From the NCBI GenBank assembly GCA_964551375.1, contig CAZKBG010000001.1, positions 630,001 through 662,000 of the forward strand: a stretch of DNA of 32,000 bases, read 5' to 3'. This stretch comes from an uncultured archaeon (GTDB taxonomy: Archaea > Iainarchaeota > Iainarchaeia > Iainarchaeales > JAAZKV01). The translations under genes and the position numbers were made by a program. Below are positions 26,225-31,577 of this stretch, piece by piece (position 1 is the stretch's first letter; every line of letters begins with the position of its first letter). Below the pieces are notes generated by a model that was given only the letters and a program-made list of their open reading frames with translations, made no database searches and was not told the origin of the DNA.

Positions 26225-28279
26225 ATGCTCACTTCACTTACACTAAAAAACTGGCGAACGCACAGAGAAACCACGCTTGAATTTGGAAAAGGCACTAATG
26301 TAATTGTAGGAGTAATGGGAAGCGGAAAGAGCTCAATAGTAAATGCTATTAGCTACGCGCTGTTTGGAACATTCCCTGCAGTGAAAGGAAGAAGCGTATC
26401 GCTTGAAGAAGTAATTATGAACAAGCCAAACGAACAGGCAAGAGCTGAAACTATTATTGAATTCACACAGGAAGAGAACAAGTACAGAGTTGAAAGAATA
26501 ATAAAACGAGACGGAACAAACGAAGCAAAATTATACGAAAATAATAAACTTGCCGCCGGACCAAAACAAAAAGATGTAAATGAACGCGTGGAAAAACTCC
26601 TCGGGCTTAATTATGAACTCTTCAGCAGAGCGGTGTACGCCGAGCAAAACGAACTTGACTTTTTTTTAAAACTTTCCCCATCTGAGCGAAAGAAAAAGTT
26701 TGACGAACTTCTTGATTTGGCAAAATATGAAGATGCGCGCAAGAACTCAACCACTCTTCAAAACGAACTTGTAAAAGAAAACAAACAGAGAAAGGAATCA
26801 ATTGAACAGCAGAAGCGAACTATTCACAGCCATGAAGAAGACAAACTTGCAAAACAAATCAAGGAAGAAGAAGAGGCAATTAAACAAATAGAACACGAAT
26901 TAACAGGGCTTAAAAAAGCAATTGAGCAAACTGAAAAAGAATACAAACAATTATGCGAGACTGAAAAACAGAACAAAACGCTTGAAGATTTGATTCTAAA
27001 AACAACCTCGAGAATTGAGGGTCTCAAAGAGGATATTTCAAAAGGCGAGAAAATCAATCTTGCTGAAATAAAAACAAAAATTGAACACCTGACAAAAGAA
27101 GCCCTAAGAGCAAAAGAAGCATATCTTCAGTTTGAAAAAGAGCAGAAAGAATACGAAAATTCCTCAAAAAAAATAGGAGAAGAAATTAAAGTCCTTGAAT
27201 ATGAAAAAGACAGGCAAAATAGAGAAGAAAAATCAATCAAGGGCTTAACCGGCAAATGCCCCACATGCAAACAAGAGCTCAACGAAGCGCACAAACACTC
27301 AATTACAAGCGAAATAACCTCTCAAATAAAAAAAATTGATTCTGAACTTGTTGAATTAATGAAAAAAAAGAAAGAATTTGCAGCAAAAACAACAGAATGC
27401 GAAAAACAAAAAAACAGCGCAAGAAATGTGCAAGATGAGGCAAACAAGGAAATTTACAAACTTGAAGCAACGCAAAAAGAAGCGCATGCAATTGAAGAAA
27501 AGAAAAAGCAACTGCATCTGCTCGGCGAAGAACTGCCAAAAATAAAAAAAATGCTTGCTGACACCGGATTTGACAAGAAAAAGCTTGACAACACGCGCGA
27601 CGAACTTTACAAAAAGAAAAGCGAAATAGCTGTCGGGGAAACAAAAATAAAATCAAAAATAGAGCTGAAAAGAAGCTATGAACTAACGCTGGCAAAAATC
27701 GCTGAAATTAAGAAAAACATAATTGAGCAGGAAAAACAAATGATTAATGTCGAAGAAGCAACAAAAAATATAGGGATATTTGCAAACTGCCTTAGCGCAA
27801 CACAGGTTGAACTAAGAAGCTCGATGATTGAAACAATAAACTCCGCAATGAACATGATTTGGAGCGCGGTTTACCCGTACAAAGACTTCACTGATGCGCG
27901 ACTTAGCGTTGTTGAAGGCGGATATGATCTTGAAGTAAAAACAAGAAACGACAAATGGGTAAGAGTTGAAGGAATACTATCAGGCGGAGAGAGAAGCGCC
28001 GCAGCGCTTTGCATTAGAATCGCATTTGCGCTTGTGCTGACTAAGAAACTTTCAATGCTTATACTTGACGAGCCCACCCACAACCTTGATTCAAATGCAG
28101 TGCTCAAACTTAGCGCAATGCTTCGCGACGATTTGCCAAAGCTTGTTGAACAAATATTTATTATCACTCATGATAAAGAACTCGAGGCTGCTGCATCAAG
28201 CAACTTATACCTGCTCACAAGAAACAAAGACATTGACGAATCAACAAGAGCTGAAGCGCTTAATGCGAATTACAAATAG
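26225..28279 (+). CDS. rad50: Rad50-like SMC-family ATPase (compact, 684 aa)
   Basis: Walker A GVMGSGKSS, a long coiled coil with a central zinc hook C345-P-T-C348 (27257-27268), signature LSGGERSAAAL, Walker B MLILDEPTHNLD and His switch IITHD. Confidence 0.85.
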   Translation: MLTSLTLKNWRTHRETTLEFGKGTNVIVGVMGSGKSSIVNAISYALFGTFPAVKGRSVSLEEVIMNKPNEQARAETIIEFTQEENKYRVERIIKRDGTNEAKLYENNKLAAGPKQKDVNERVEKLLGLNYELFSRAVYAEQNELDFFLKLSPSERKKKFDELLDLAKYEDARKNSTTLQNELVKENKQRKESIEQQKRTIHSHEEDKLAKQIKEEEEAIKQIEHELTGLKKAIEQTEKEYKQLCETEKQNKTLEDLILKTTSRIEGLKEDISKGEKINLAEIKTKIEHLTKEALRAKEAYLQFEKEQKEYENSSKKIGEEIKVLEYEKDRQNREEKSIKGLTGKCPTCKQELNEAHKHSITSEITSQIKKIDSELVELMKKKKEFAAKTTECEKQKNSARNVQDEANKEIYKLEATQKEAHAIEEKKKQLHLLGEELPKIKKMLADTGFDKKKLDNTRDELYKKKSEIAVGETKIKSKIELKRSYELTLAKIAEIKKNIIEQEKQMINVEEATKNIGIFANCLSATQVELRSSMIETINSAMNMIWSAVYPYKDFTDARLSVVEGGYDLEVKTRNDKWVRVEGILSGGERSAAALCIRIAFALVLTKKLSMLILDEPTHNLDSNAVLKLSAMLRDDLPKLVEQIFIITHDKELEAAASSNLYLLTRNKDIDESTRAEALNANYK

Positions 28280-28346: not shown

Positions 28347-28553
28347 TTAATTTAATTTTTCTGCTTCCTTTCTCTTAGCAAGTCTGCAAATGTAACCAGC
28401 AAGAATATTTCTTGTAACTTTTGAAAGCTTTAAATCCTTCATTTCATCAAGATGCTTCTTGTTGTTGTCAAACTTATCGTTGAATTTTTCAGGGAACTCT
28501 TCAAGAAGAACTTCTCCCTTGTACTTTGTACCCTTTGCGATAGACTTTCCCAT
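28347..28553 (-). CDS. rps17e: 30S ribosomal protein S17e
   Basis: 68 aa. MGKSIAKGTKYKGEVLLEEFPEKFNDKFDNNKKHL....RNILAGYICRL is collinear with archaeal eS17. Confidence 0.85.
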   Translation of the reverse strand: MGKSIAKGTKYKGEVLLEEFPEKFNDKFDNNKKHLDEMKDLKLSKVTRNILAGYICRLAKRKEAEKLN

Positions 28554-28566
28554 TAAATCACCAAAA

Positions 28567-28776
28567 TTAATCGAACAATTCCACTCTTTTATTTAATCCG
28601 TTAGGAAACTTCCTTAAAATTGACAAAGGAAGAACCTTCTGATTAAATTCTTTTTCTGCAACTTCAAGCATTGAAAGTTCGCTAGTCCTTTTAACCAAAG
28701 GAGGCGCGCCCAAAGATAATTGAAGAGCTCTTGCAGAAAGCACTCTAGTAAGTTCAAATCTAGTCAACCTGCTCAT
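28567..28776 (-). CDS. rpoK: DNA-directed RNA polymerase subunit K (Rpo6)
   Basis: MSRLTRFELTRVLSARALQLSLGAPPLV is the canonical Rpo6 core. ATG 28776, preceded by SD GGTGG, is preferred over the track's TTG 28809. Confidence 0.85.
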   Translation of the reverse strand: MSRLTRFELTRVLSARALQLSLGAPPLVKRTSELSMLEVAEKEFNQKVLPLSILRKFPNGLNKRVELFD

Positions 28777-28876
28777 TTTCCCACCAGTATAATACTTCTC
28801 ATAAAGCAACCTTTAAAAGCGTTCCCAAAACACTAAAAAAAGGGAAAACCGCCAAAATAAGCTATTTTAACTAATT

Positions 28877-30475
28877 TTAGGCAAAACCAAGAGCGCGTTT
28901 TGTTGCAAAACCAGCTACCTGCGGCTGGGGGAGATTGGTTTTAGACGCAAAATCCTTTGCAAGCTTTAGAGACGCATGCCCTTTTACAAAAGCATTAGTT
29001 GAATTCGCATGAAGAACCCTATATCCCGCACTTTCGGAGAACTCCTTAAACTTTGCAATAGTAGCATCCTGAATTGAAACAATATTTTTTGCGAGAACTG
29101 TTGAGAAAAACTTTGAATTGGGATTAGTTAATTGAACCGGAATGCCTGACAACGCAATTGAAAGGGAAGAATAGAGTGAATTAAAATAATAAAAAGAAAA
29201 ATTCGGGCTTGTAAATAAATTCTGAGCAACTTGATCCATTCTTTTTCGCAAGCCGAACAAAAACGAGCTTGAAGAGCGCACCTCTTTTGAAAAAAAGCTT
29301 TCCTTATTCAAACAAAACCAGTTTAATTCATGAATGCTTTCTCTATTTTTTGAATTTTCTGCTGTTTCAAAATCTTTGCTTGAAACAAGCACTGCCTTTC
29401 CCTGAGAAATTAACCTCTTCGCATCCATTAAAGGAATACTTTTTGAATCCTCCCTAAAAAACGGGCCAACAGGAAAAGAACTTGTGAAAAACTCTTTTCG
29501 CTTTGAAATTCTCTGCTCTTTAAACGGCATTTCATTATGAAAATCAAGCGAAAAGTTTGAAGAAATTGATTCAAAGAATAAATTATCCTCCAAAAATCTG
29601 ACTTTTATTAATGAAGAGGGAAGCAAATTCTTCGCATCAAGAACAACAGGCGAACAGCATGAACAATTTTTTGTTTCAGGACCGATGTTAAAAAAAGTGC
29701 TTGTGAAGAGCTCTGCCCAAACTAATGAAAAGTCAAGTTTGGACAAAGACTCCCCGCCAAGCGGCTCAAACCCCAATCCCGAATACACTCTCTTAGATTC
29801 TTCAAAAGAAACAAGCTCGCCGTTTTTGAAAAATATATTCTCTATAAATATCTCAATTCGCGAGTCTTTATCCTTTGGCACTAATTCCATCGGAACAGCA
29901 AGCAAGTTACTCCAAGAAGCAAGCTCAACCAAATACAAAGCATCATCTTTACTCACATTCATAGCTTCAGAAAAAGGAATCTCCTTAGTAAGGAAGAACC
30001 CCAAATCAACTTCAGCCGATTTTTCGCTTCCCTGCGAAGATAAATCAATTTTAAAAAAAGAATTGCCTGATTTTTCAAAAGAATCAAAATAACTCCAGTT
30101 TTTTGAAATCAAAAAAGCGCGCTCTGGCTGGGGAACAAGAGGAAGCTTTCCAATATGCCGAGCAAGCGCGTTGGATATTTTTTTTAATTCTGAAAAAGAC
30201 AGCGCTTTAAGGCAAAACATGCCTCCCTCTTCTTCAAGGCTGAACCCCTTAAAGCCAAGGGAGAGAATCAGATCCTCAAGCTTGTCTTTTTCAAAACTAA
30301 ACGAAATCCTGGTGAAAGGAAAGAACTTGTGCCTCTCTACAACACGAGAAGATGAGTTGCTAAACTCAACCAAAACCTCATGCCTTGATTCAAGGTATGA
30401 AACCTTGGTTAAGTAAAATAGTCGCGCAAGCGGATTATTATCAGCGCCGAAAAAGGCATCTTTGTGTTGGGACAT
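28877..30475 (-). CDS. family B DNA polymerase-like protein, truncated and predicted catalytically inactive
   Basis: By-eye collinearity with Thermococcus-type PolB over several segments. PQPERAFLISK matches PFAKRYLIDK, and DALYLVELA..VPMEL matches EDAKVTYELG..LPMEA. YSGLGFEPLGG matches YEGGYVKEPERG. Motif A LDFSLVWAELFTSTFFNIGPETKN matches [22 protein letters not shown]. Motif B YYFNSLYSS matches KILANSYYGY, and motif C GYRVLHANSTN matches GFKVIYSDTDG. The exonuclease region is largely missing and the thumb is absent. Confidence 0.45.
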   Translation of the reverse strand: MSQHKDAFFGADNNPLARLFYLTKVSYLESRHEVLVEFSNSSSRVVERHKFFPFTRISFSFEKDKLEDLILSLGFKGFSLEEEGGMFCLKALSFSELKKISNALARHIGKLPLVPQPERAFLISKNWSYFDSFEKSGNSFFKIDLSSQGSEKSAEVDLGFFLTKEIPFSEAMNVSKDDALYLVELASWSNLLAVPMELVPKDKDSRIEIFIENIFFKNGELVSFEESKRVYSGLGFEPLGGESLSKLDFSLVWAELFTSTFFNIGPETKNCSCCSPVVLDAKNLLPSSLIKVRFLEDNLFFESISSNFSLDFHNEMPFKEQRISKRKEFFTSSFPVGPFFREDSKSIPLMDAKRLISQGKAVLVSSKDFETAENSKNRESIHELNWFCLNKESFFSKEVRSSSSFLFGLRKRMDQVAQNLFTSPNFSFYYFNSLYSSLSIALSGIPVQLTNPNSKFFSTVLAKNIVSIQDATIAKFKEFSESAGYRVLHANSTNAFVKGHASLKLAKDFASKTNLPQPQVAGFATKRALGFA

Positions 30476-30557
30476 TAGGAGGATGTTTTTTCCCCAATTT
30501 AAGTACTATTTGGAAGTATTTTGCCGGTGAGCAGATAAAACTGACAACTATACTAAA

Positions 30558-31577
30558 TTAAAGCTCATTAACAAAACAGCGAACCCCGCCGCCCGCAGCG
30601 CGATTTGCCCTAAGCGCAACAGGGGTAGGAATTACGGTTACTCCATTTGATTTTAGAAGTTCAATAGTTCTCTTTGCTTCTTTATCAACCATCACAGTAT
30701 TTTCGCCAAGAACCAAAAAGTTTGCTGGATAAATTGAAGCTTCTTCTTTAGGAACTGTAATAATTTTTGCCCCTGCTTGTTTTGCCGCAGCAGAAATAGC
30801 CCCTTGATTTTCTCTTAAGAAAAATTCATCAACAAGCATTATCTTCCCAGCTCTTCCGACAAATAAATCAGGATGATCAATATTTCGAAAAACTTTCTTT
30901 CCGACCATTTTTGACAAGTTATGCATTTCCTGCCAGCCGTCCTTTACAAAATAAAACATCATTCCTTCAGAAGCCAATCTTTTTACTGTAGGGGAATTTC
31001 GAAGATTTGCCGAAACAATCATCTGCTTCTCTCCTACTTGAACTACCTGCCCGCCTTCTCCAAAATTGTCAGGAGCGAACAGAGAATTATTTGGTTTGAA
31101 TCTTTTTTTTCCATGCTTAATCCAAAGATCCCTTGTCCAAAGAGCAGCAGGATCCACTGCAGGAACGCTGTTAATTTTTCCCATCTCATTTGCTTTTGCT
31201 TTGAAAACTTTAGCACTTCCTGAAACGCGTTTTAGAATAGCATCCTCGCTGAAAAAATACTTTGGAACAGCAATTTTGAATCCAAGCGAATTAAGTTTTT
31301 TAATAACAGCAATTCTTTCCGCGCTCACACGCCACACGGCTTTAGGATGATTTACAACAAACCCCATCATTGAAAATCCTGCAAAAAGATCTCCCTTCAT
31401 TCTTGTTGAATCAAGAAAAATTCCTTCTTTTGCATGGCGAACCCCTGTTAATCCCTGAAAAGACTTTGGATTTAATTGAGGAGTTCTGCCAGAACGATAA
31501 TCAGCGTATGCGCGCGTTTCCATATCAGGCTTTCTTCCAAGAGCCACTACAAAACGCTTTTTTGCATTAGGATTCAT
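30558..31577 (-). CDS. pentein (amidinotransferase / arginine deiminase-fold) guanidino-group-modifying enzyme
   Basis: 339 aa with the C-terminal nucleophile motif GGGVRC. Upstream are WTRD, FGEGGQ (an EGGD-like motif) and HPD segments in the order expected for the superfamily. Confidence 0.7.
   Translation of the reverse strand: MNPNAKKRFVVALGRKPDMETRAYADYRSGRTPQLNPKSFQGLTGVRHAKEGIFLDSTRMKGDLFAGFSMMGFVVNHPKAVWRVSAERIAVIKKLNSLGFKIAVPKYFFSEDAILKRVSGSAKVFKAKANEMGKINSVPAVDPAALWTRDLWIKHGKKRFKPNNSLFAPDNFGEGGQVVQVGEKQMIVSANLRNSPTVKRLASEGMMFYFVKDGWQEMHNLSKMVGKKVFRNIDHPDLFVGRAGKIMLVDEFFLRENQGAISAAAKQAGAKIITVPKEEASIYPANFLVLGENTVMVDKEAKRTIELLKSNGVTVIPTPVALRANRAAGGGVRCFVNEL

Follow-up and report, generated by a model that had tools for sequence, protein, structure and literature searches.

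A 32,000-nucleotide (nt) stretch of DNA from an uncultured archaeon of the Iainarchaeales (NCBI GenBank assembly GCA_964551375.1, contig CAZKBG010000001.1, forward-strand positions 630,001 to 662,000; hereafter "the window") was found to carry, on its minus strand, an intact open reading frame (ORF) whose 532-amino-acid (aa) product is a lineage-specific, paralog-like derivative of archaeal family-B DNA polymerase (PolB). This PolB-like protein has a polymerase fold in which the catalytic motifs have degenerated, and its palm is interrupted by an inserted domain that resembles the B-domain of GINS. We propose that it is a non-catalytic adaptor in replication-coupled recombination that uses the GINS-B-like insert as its docking module, a proposal to which we give about an even chance of being right. 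The dead polymerase body would serve as the scaffold, and a structural metal, most likely Zn, held by four Cys would clamp the insert at its foot. In this model the GINS-B-like part docks onto a partner of the GINS B-domain, for example a RecJ/GAN (Cdc45-type) DHH nuclease or MCM, and the adaptor would work at stalled forks or DNA ends, alongside the apparently co-regulated MCM, RadA, RecJ-like and NurA-HerA genes.

The homology of the 532-aa protein to PolB is real and is visible to profile and structure methods only. When the protein was used as a single sequence, it gave no match in Pfam, in NCBIfam or in a phmmer search of the PDB, and the Pfam DNA_pol_B model matched none of 50 PolB-like family members. 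These 50 sequences make up the family alignment A1, over which conservation and invariance within the PolB-like family were counted. The only PDB entries matched by the family profile were PolBs (P. calidifontis PolB, 5mdn, E 0.009; E. coli Pol II, E 0.05), and the profile alignment to 5mdn consisted of two collinear segments, corresponding to motif A and to the motif B-C region. An hhalign comparison of A1 with A2, an alignment of canonical PolBs from the same lineage, gave a Prob of 97% and an E of 1.1e-10 and placed aa 187-518 opposite PolB residues 411-649. The AlphaFold2 (AF2) model of the protein was confident (pLDDT 86, pTM 0.85), and a Foldseek search with it returned 237 matches at E<1e-3, of which the top 50 were all archaeal PolBs (best E 2.5e-12, prob 1.00, TMq ~0.5); the alignment to 5mdn, a PolB of 761 residues, covered ~700 columns. 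Foldseek and hhalign together place the N-terminal domain, palm and fingers architecture of PolB in the protein, and these significant profile and structure matches bear out the homology that an earlier note on this DNA, made from the sequence alone, had claimed. The parts of the protein that correspond to PolB, and the linker between two of them, are as follows.

28877-30475, minus strand: coding sequence of the dead PolB-like protein (P0001, 532 aa), from the ORF, its homologs, the AF2 model and Foldseek.
30050-30421, minus strand: equivalent of the PolB N-terminal domain, aa 19-142, with the RYLID-like PERAFLISKNW (aa 117-127), from the Foldseek alignment.
29918-30049, minus strand: acidic linker, aa 143-186, standing in place of the ~200-aa 3'-5' exonuclease domain of PolB and including KIDLSS, from pLDDT, conservation and length accounting.
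29681-29917, minus strand: palm entry and motif A, aa 187-265, from hhalign and the hidden Markov model (HMM) alignment to 5mdn.
29120-29299, minus strand: fingers helices, aa 393-452, with a degenerate motif B, SIALSGIPV (aa 439-447, nt 29135-29161), from hhalign and AF2.
28880-29119, minus strand: C-terminal palm, aa 453-532, with a dead motif C, from hhalign and the HMM alignment.

Within the N-terminal domain, PERAFLISKNW was likened to the "KRYLIDK" of PolB by eye against A2, this part of the protein being unaligned by hhalign; residues P117, R119, F121 and L122 are invariant or nearly so in the family. The exonuclease domain with its ExoI to ExoIII motifs is missing, with ~45 poorly conserved residues between the N-terminal domain and the palm, a loss that was deduced by length accounting against the 853-aa PolB of the same genome. 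The linker has an isoelectric point of 4.05 and low pLDDT at residues 149-151. The earlier note was thus correct that most of the exonuclease domain is deleted; its reading of KIDLSS as ExoI was not verifiable, and KIDLSS is unconserved in the family. The palm entry YSGLGFEPLGG (aa 231-241) was confirmed, as was the retention of the Asp in motif A, LDFSLVWAEL (aa 247-256, nt 29708-29737), in which D248-F249-S250 are conserved. In the hhalign alignment aa 187-255 lay opposite PolB 411-491, with DFSLVWA opposite DFASLYP, and the NIGPET-NC segment is also kept.

The fingers were modeled by AF2 as two helices, 394-417 and 426-450, and the counterpart of PolB "GLFPQIL" is ESFFSKEV (aa 392-399), not LLPSSLIK (aa 284-291) as had been claimed, the latter being the opening of the insert. 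Motif B, SIALSGIPV, aligned opposite KIILNSVYG and has lost the Lys, Asn, Tyr and Gly, and its columns are unconserved across the 50 homologs; the loss of the Lys had been noticed before but had been placed at FNSLYSS (aa 431-437), and the real motif lies 8 residues downstream. The palm helix that precedes motif C is kept (SKFFS..LAKSI..IQ opposite ARWYS..CA.S.T), as is the hairpin of motif C itself, YRVLHANSTN (aa 485-494, nt 28994-29023). There, HANSTN lay opposite YGDTDS and both Asp are replaced, as had been read from the sequence. Both Asp positions of motif C are substituted and variable in the 50 homologs, the first holding N, G, D, S or T and the second T, N, Q, R or K. Judged from these sequences, this variation is not that of a conservative alternative active site. 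The thumb is likewise missing, in agreement with the earlier note: aa 518 lay opposite residue 649 of the 853-residue PolB, and the protein stops where the thumb would start. Because the motif B Lys and the motif C Asp pair have been lost, the alignments predict that the protein cannot polymerize via the two-metal mechanism.

A decaying pseudogene or a mis-called ORF might be suspected from the lack of Pfam and NCBIfam matches and from database names that are "hypothetical" without exception. We give this explanation virtually no credence: the frame is intact in almost all of the 169 genomes in which the gene was detected, dN/dS (the ratio of nonsynonymous to synonymous substitution rates) is ~0.08 at a dS of 0.7-0.9, the AF2 model is confident and 16 columns of the family alignment are invariant; the 169-genome distribution and the dN/dS refute it. 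The dN/dS values, 0.078-0.091 at dS 0.72-0.87, were calculated by the Nei-Gojobori method from four unsaturated pairs of closer orthologs, which were used because pairs that included the query were saturated (pS 0.7-0.8). The ratio of nonsynonymous to synonymous differences (pN/pS) varied by region, being lowest around motif A (0.23), highest in the fingers (0.54) and 0.36-0.38 in the insert, the N-terminal domain and the C-terminal palm. These results demonstrate that the PolB-like protein is under strong purifying selection.

The sample of 201 genomes of the phylum that was searched with the A1 profile yielded the gene in 169, and in 55 of the 58 high-quality genomes. Nearly every family of the order was covered and the frame was almost always uninterrupted; the search did not find the gene in families f22 (0/7) and f32. 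The close homologs (n=80; 28-80% identity) come from metagenome-assembled genomes of the Diapherotrites/Iainarchaeia type and are all labeled "hypothetical," an exhaustive phmmer search grouped the family into 157 clusters at 50% identity with a longest member of 546 aa, and no description of the family was found in the literature searched. The DPANN order concerned has genomes of ~1 Mb, and one of its near-universal core genes, labeled "hypothetical," gains a name and a testable role from this finding. The genome studied here (1.09 Mb, 93% complete) was also checked for active replicative polymerases and was found to encode, elsewhere, a complete 853-aa PolB in which every Exo and Pol motif is intact (L001, G000:C2:92206-94764) together with the DP2 and DP1 subunits of PolD. 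Taken together, the fold, the dead motifs, the active PolB and PolD elsewhere and the selection support the retained non-catalytic role that had been suggested for this inactivated mini-PolB.

It is very improbable that the protein is still an enzyme, whether a polymerase or a nucleotidyl-transferase, that uses non-canonical residues. D248 of motif A is at least 90% conserved, and there are precedents in PolB2/Dpo2, which was called dead and later found active (PMC8764526, PMC11791011), and in pPolB, which is functional without the first Asp of motif C (PMC7544198). However, in PolB2 the thumb is complete and one motif C Asp remains, whereas here both motif C Asp and the motif B Lys have been replaced by variable, often basic residues, there is no thumb for holding a primer-template, and the fingers are the least constrained region of the protein.

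Opposite the loss of these parts stands the gain of a domain that is absent from PolB, the limits of which are marked by invariant Cys residues.

29654-29665, minus strand: C271-x-C273-C274, three invariant Cys predicted to make the proximal half of a metal clamp, from 50/50 sequences and hhalign.
29321-29653, minus strand: inserted domain, aa 275-385, absent from PolB, from the hhalign gap.
29312-29320, minus strand: W386-F-C388, with the fourth invariant Cys, which closes the insert, from invariance and hhalign.

The insert appeared in hhalign as a gap of about 100-110 aa relative to PolB, between "NC" and "WFC" and before the fingers. An insert had been predicted earlier, and its presence was upheld; its size, given then as ~130 aa, was corrected to ~110 aa and its location, given as between motifs A and B, to before the fingers. 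The flanking Cys and the GINS likeness of the insert, the main derived feature of the protein, had gone unremarked then, as had the link to herA-nurA and the shared promoter element. Its strands beta1-2 are formed by SLIKVRFLEDNLFF (nt 29573-29614) and are followed by a helical hairpin (aa 302-335), and it carries the signature VGPFF...IPLMDAKRLI (nt 29390-29470). The segment aa 263-388, which is 24% of the length of the protein, contains 12 of the 16 invariant residues of the family.

C271, C273, C274 and C388 are invariant in the 50 sequences. When the protein was aligned by hhalign to the genome's own PolB, NC lay opposite NC(505) and NWFC opposite TWFC(522), so that C271 and C388 correspond to C505 and C522. 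The PolB of this lineage has an invariant C505-x-H507-xx-C510...C522 directly after motif A (numbered as in the genome's copy), a set that may be a Zn site in the active enzyme and from which the Cys clamp of the dead paralog probably derives. The NC...WFC signature shared with the lineage's own PolB suggests that the PolB-like gene originated locally. The Thermococcales PolB has C428 and C442 at the equivalent positions, where they form a disulfide; the two positions are therefore adjacent in the fold, and by analogy the four Cys of the PolB-like protein would make up a structural metal site that clamps the insert where it joins the palm, with Zn the most likely metal. An analogy of the insert to the P-domain of Pol epsilon with its CysX Fe-S cluster was also considered, given the positional likeness (three Cys, an insert and a further Cys between motif A and the fingers), and was rejected, as no Pol epsilon chain was present in the Foldseek top 50. 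Only the idea of a metal clamp, itself an argument from analogy, survives from it.

Folded alone, the insert was modeled with a pLDDT of 87, and the top Foldseek match to this model was the C-terminal B-domain of Gins51 bound to GAN (5ghr_B, prob 0.97; 5ghr_D, prob 0.94; TMt 0.71, root mean square deviation 2.5 Å, E 0.27). GINS subunits of human, yeast, worm, Saccharolobus and Thermococcus came next, and ~30 of the top 50 matches, individually weak but strikingly consistent, were chains of GINS or of the Cdc45-MCM-GINS (CMG) helicase. An hhalign comparison of the insert profile with 30 Gins51 orthologs of the order placed VGPFFREDSKSIPLMDAKRLISQGKAV (aa 336-362) opposite the B-domain signature YGPFSEGQSVELPTKVARLFVTRKIAE. 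Against the Gins51 B-domain alone the score was 30.3 (Prob 80%), a value reached by none of 300 column-shuffled templates (10.7±2.3, maximum 24.9), and a greedier hhalign run covered the whole 53-column B-domain, with the ~34-aa helical hairpin falling between beta2 and beta3. These comparisons suggest a likeness of the insert to the GINS B-domain at the level of sequence and of predicted fold. A genome scan with the Pfam Gins51_C model left the insert unmatched. A role for the insert as a replacement for GINS is ruled out by the canonical Gins51 of this genome, a protein that all 41 high-quality genomes of the order also have, and the insert would thus be an extra GINS-B-like module.

Clues to the setting in which such a module might act were found upstream of the gene, where two short elements were recognized.

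30519-30529, minus strand: CACCGGCAAAA, a promoter-proximal element that lies 54 nt ahead of the ATG start codon, from its copy count versus shuffles and from the upstream regions of orthologs.
30496-30505, minus strand: putative TATA-like box TACTTAAATT, from its sequence and from a spacing to the element that is held at all 5 sites.

An initial search for k-mers upstream of the gene gave no useful signal. The exact 11-mer CACCGGCAAAA occurs 5 times in the genome, compared to 0.5 times in shuffles, and a TATA-like hexamer lies 22-36 nt downstream at all 5 copies, compared to 0.1 expected. The enrichment is confined to the extended 11-mer with its TATA-like box: the short core CACCGG[AC]AA has a genomic count at chance (9 vs 8). 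The copies lie at G000:C1:371530, 534578, 713502 and 842203 and at the window site; the genes that follow are those for MCM, RadA, an operon of an HhH-protein and a DHH protein (RecJ/GAN/HAN-type), and the PolB-like protein, the fifth site having no obvious gene. At the four sites with genes, ~17-20 nt separate CACCGGCAAAA from the TATA-like box. A degenerate copy, AACCGGCAATTTGCTCCAAATTGCTTTAAAT, is present in the promoter of the nurA operon (~35880-35910 in window coordinates, past the window end; L052 ~13880). The upstream regions of orthologs have in common CACCGG(A/C)AA...ACTC, ~20 nt before a TATA-like box, and ACCGG[AC] was found within 120 nt upstream of the PolB-like gene at 11 of 19 loci and of nurA at 4 of 15, compared to 0/16 for rad50, 0/17 for rpoK, 0/17 for S17e, 0/15 for EF1b and 1/14 for CCA. 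These patterns in the DNA indicate that the PolB-like gene has its own promoter element and that it appears to be co-regulated, via CACCGGCAAAA, with MCM, RadA, the RecJ-like operon and nurA-herA. They define a candidate replication and recombination regulon of these genes with a simple cis-element.

The site at 842203 is not followed directly by a gene start; a ~77-aa ORF (MKPVKSVKVGAIEVAVWEN...) lies ~340 nt downstream (C1 ~841560-841860, minus strand), and a non-coding RNA or a long leader may occupy the space between.

Downstream, the gene is followed on the same strand by two genes of the transcription and translation machinery, as the earlier note had said.

28567-28809, minus strand: rpoK, the single copy of the genome, directly downstream of the PolB-like gene, from Pfam RNA_pol_Rpb6 (8.8e-8).
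28347-28553, minus strand: rps17e, downstream of rpoK, from Pfam Ribosomal_S17e (8e-8) and synteny.

Synteny was compared in 18 orthologous loci from ~15 families of the order. The order of genes is CCA(+) EF1b(+) Rad50(+) / S17e(-) RpoK(-) PolB-like(-) HerA(-) NurA(-), with the PolB-like-rpoK-S17e unit present in 16 of the 18 loci, a convergent rad50 in 15 and adjacent herA and nurA in 15. A role in transcription or translation, for example as a factor associated with RNA polymerase, could be read from the first of these units, whose genes lie on one strand and often abut or overlap, from the single-copy status of rpoK and from the lack of a CACCGG element upstream of rpoK or S17e, which makes read-through from the PolB-like promoter possible. 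Such a role is nonetheless improbable, since the other copies of CACCGGCAAAA sit on genes of DNA replication and recombination, the scaffold is that of a DNA polymerase with a GINS-like insert, and archaeal operons that mix in ribosomal or RNA polymerase genes are common.

The same neighborhood can be read in a second way, in which the protein serves specifically as an accessory to end resection by HerA-NurA (and Rad50), occupying the operon slot that mre11 has in other archaea, and its GINS likeness is incidental. In 15 of 18 loci the gene has herA to one side and rad50 to the other, which favors such a subunit, as do the location of mre11 ~100 kb off, outside the cluster, and the variant of the CACCGGCAAAA element in the nurA promoter. 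The exact element, however, is common to MCM and RadA and is absent upstream of rad50 (0/16), and the PolB-like gene, with a putative promoter of its own, is grouped with rpoK-rps17e and not with herA. In addition, family f6 (L057, L067) keeps the gene without herA, nurA or rad50 nearby, and the GINS likeness beats 300 of 300 shuffles. On balance we regard the accessory subunit as unlikely, though less so than a link to RNA polymerase.

Several points weigh against the adaptor that we propose. Taken match by match the GINS likeness is weak (Foldseek E 0.27; hhalign Prob 58-80%), the Pfam Gins51_C model (PF22090) matched only 1 of 50 PolB-like family members (E 0.032), and the B-domain is a small fold that could have arisen by convergence; a canonical Gins51 is already present in the genome. 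The regulon is drawn from 5-6 sites in one genome and from footprinting. Because unrelated genes (CCA, EF1b, rpoK and S17e) share the syntenic block, the synteny may reflect the general conservation of genomes in this order and is, alone, weak functional evidence.

Inactivated PolB paralogs are known in PolB2, the C-terminal half of eukaryotic Pol epsilon and poxvirus F12, and an "inactivated" archaeal PolB was reportedly described by Rogozin in 2008. To our knowledge, none of the inactivated PolB paralogs described so far combines the loss of thumb and exonuclease with a GINS-like docking module inserted at its core. The N-terminal domain, palm and fingers are common to the PolB-like protein and the archaeal replicative PolBs (PolB3/PolB1 type; 5mdn, 1tgo, 4flu and the genome's 853-aa PolB), with which it is collinear through the RYLID-like segment, EP..G, DFS of motif A, NxxPET-NC...WFC and the ARWY-like helix before motif C. 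Unlike them, it lacks the exonuclease, the thumb, the motif B Lys and the motif C Asp pair and has the ~110-aa insert; PolBs close the insert-bearing loop with two cysteines, whereas the PolB-like protein flanks the insert with four invariant Cys. The insert is likened to the Gins51 B-domain (PF22090; 5ghr with GAN) by the beta-beta...GPF-x-G-x-V-x-LP-x-A-x-L signature and by its predicted fold and differs from it in having the ~34-aa hairpin between beta2 and beta3, in being embedded in a polymerase palm and in lacking the GINS A-domain.

PolB2/Dpo2 forms the "inactivated" group of archaeal PolBs (Makarova 2014, PMC4104785; PMC11791011), and the PolB-like protein is similar to it in that it accompanies the replicase as a second PolB paralog and has a degraded exonuclease, altered polymerase motifs and links to DNA damage and repair. 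PolB2, an active extender polymerase, departs little from the canonical structure and retains the thumb and one of the motif C Asp (PMC7544198, PMC11791011), and its operon contains iRadA and PPB2/arCOG07300 (PMC4104785, PMC7544198, PMC11791011). Unlike PolB2, the PolB-like protein has neither a thumb nor a conserved motif C Asp, and no RadA-like gene was adjacent to its gene in the 18 loci; the neighbors in the window are herA, a pentein-fold gene and rpoK-S17e. Membership in PolB2/Dpo2 was rejected, the thumb, the motif C Asp and the iRadA/PPB2 operon all being absent.

The C-terminal half of Pol epsilon is an inactivated PolB module (Tahirov 2009, PMC2669801), and like it the PolB-like protein is a catalytically dead PolB fold kept as what would be a structural element of DNA replication. 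Pol epsilon contacts the CMG helicase via GINS, whereas the PolB-like protein has a GINS-B-like module built in. In contrast to the dead half of Pol epsilon, it is a far smaller protein on its own, with neither the C-terminal Zn modules nor a Dpb2/DP1 partner; the dead half would be its closest analogy, at the level of function only. Carried further, this analogy would make the protein an archaeal equivalent, standing alone, of the PolB module that has lost catalysis in Pol epsilon: a polymerase that, once dead, became a structural subunit of the replisome or of fork repair by acquiring a GINS B-domain of its own, this domain plugging into a CMG-type helicase (at the RecJ/GAN-Cdc45 or MCM interface) and a dedicated CACCGGCAAAA regulon. 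This more specific form is tentative and in our estimation considerably less probable than the general adaptor. If the PolB-like protein is a scaffold that docks a helicase or nuclease, it would be an independent archaeal case of a dead polymerase recruited into replisome or repair architecture, the same evolutionary move as that of the essential non-catalytic half of Pol epsilon.

Other observations concern the genes around the PolB-like gene. A 339-aa ORF of the pentein/amidinotransferase fold (30558-31577, minus strand), with a weak DDAH_eukar match and a C-terminal GGGVRC, separates herA from the PolB-like gene; of the 19 loci in the comparison, the window's own was the only one found to have it there. 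Within ±9 kb of the PolB-like gene in family f6 genomes G006 and G061, none of herA, nurA, rad50, rpoK and S17e was detected, and the synteny is broken in that family. The rad50 gene of the window (26225-28279, plus strand; 684 aa, with a zinc hook) is unlinked from mre11, and herA-nurA is separate from mre11-rad50, unlike the operon of thermophiles. A 409-aa Mre11-type phosphoesterase with the motifs DSHLG, GDLFD, GTHE and GHLH is encoded ~100 kb away (C1 ~545554-546783), directly downstream of a 290-aa gene, and its presence at C1 ~545.5 kb ruled out the PolB-like protein as a replacement for Mre11. Frames two to three times the normal length were found for herA (1100-1700 aa, among L063, L069, L070 and L059) and for rad50 (~1235 aa in L059), a pattern that points to inteins or gene fusions in part of the order's genomes.

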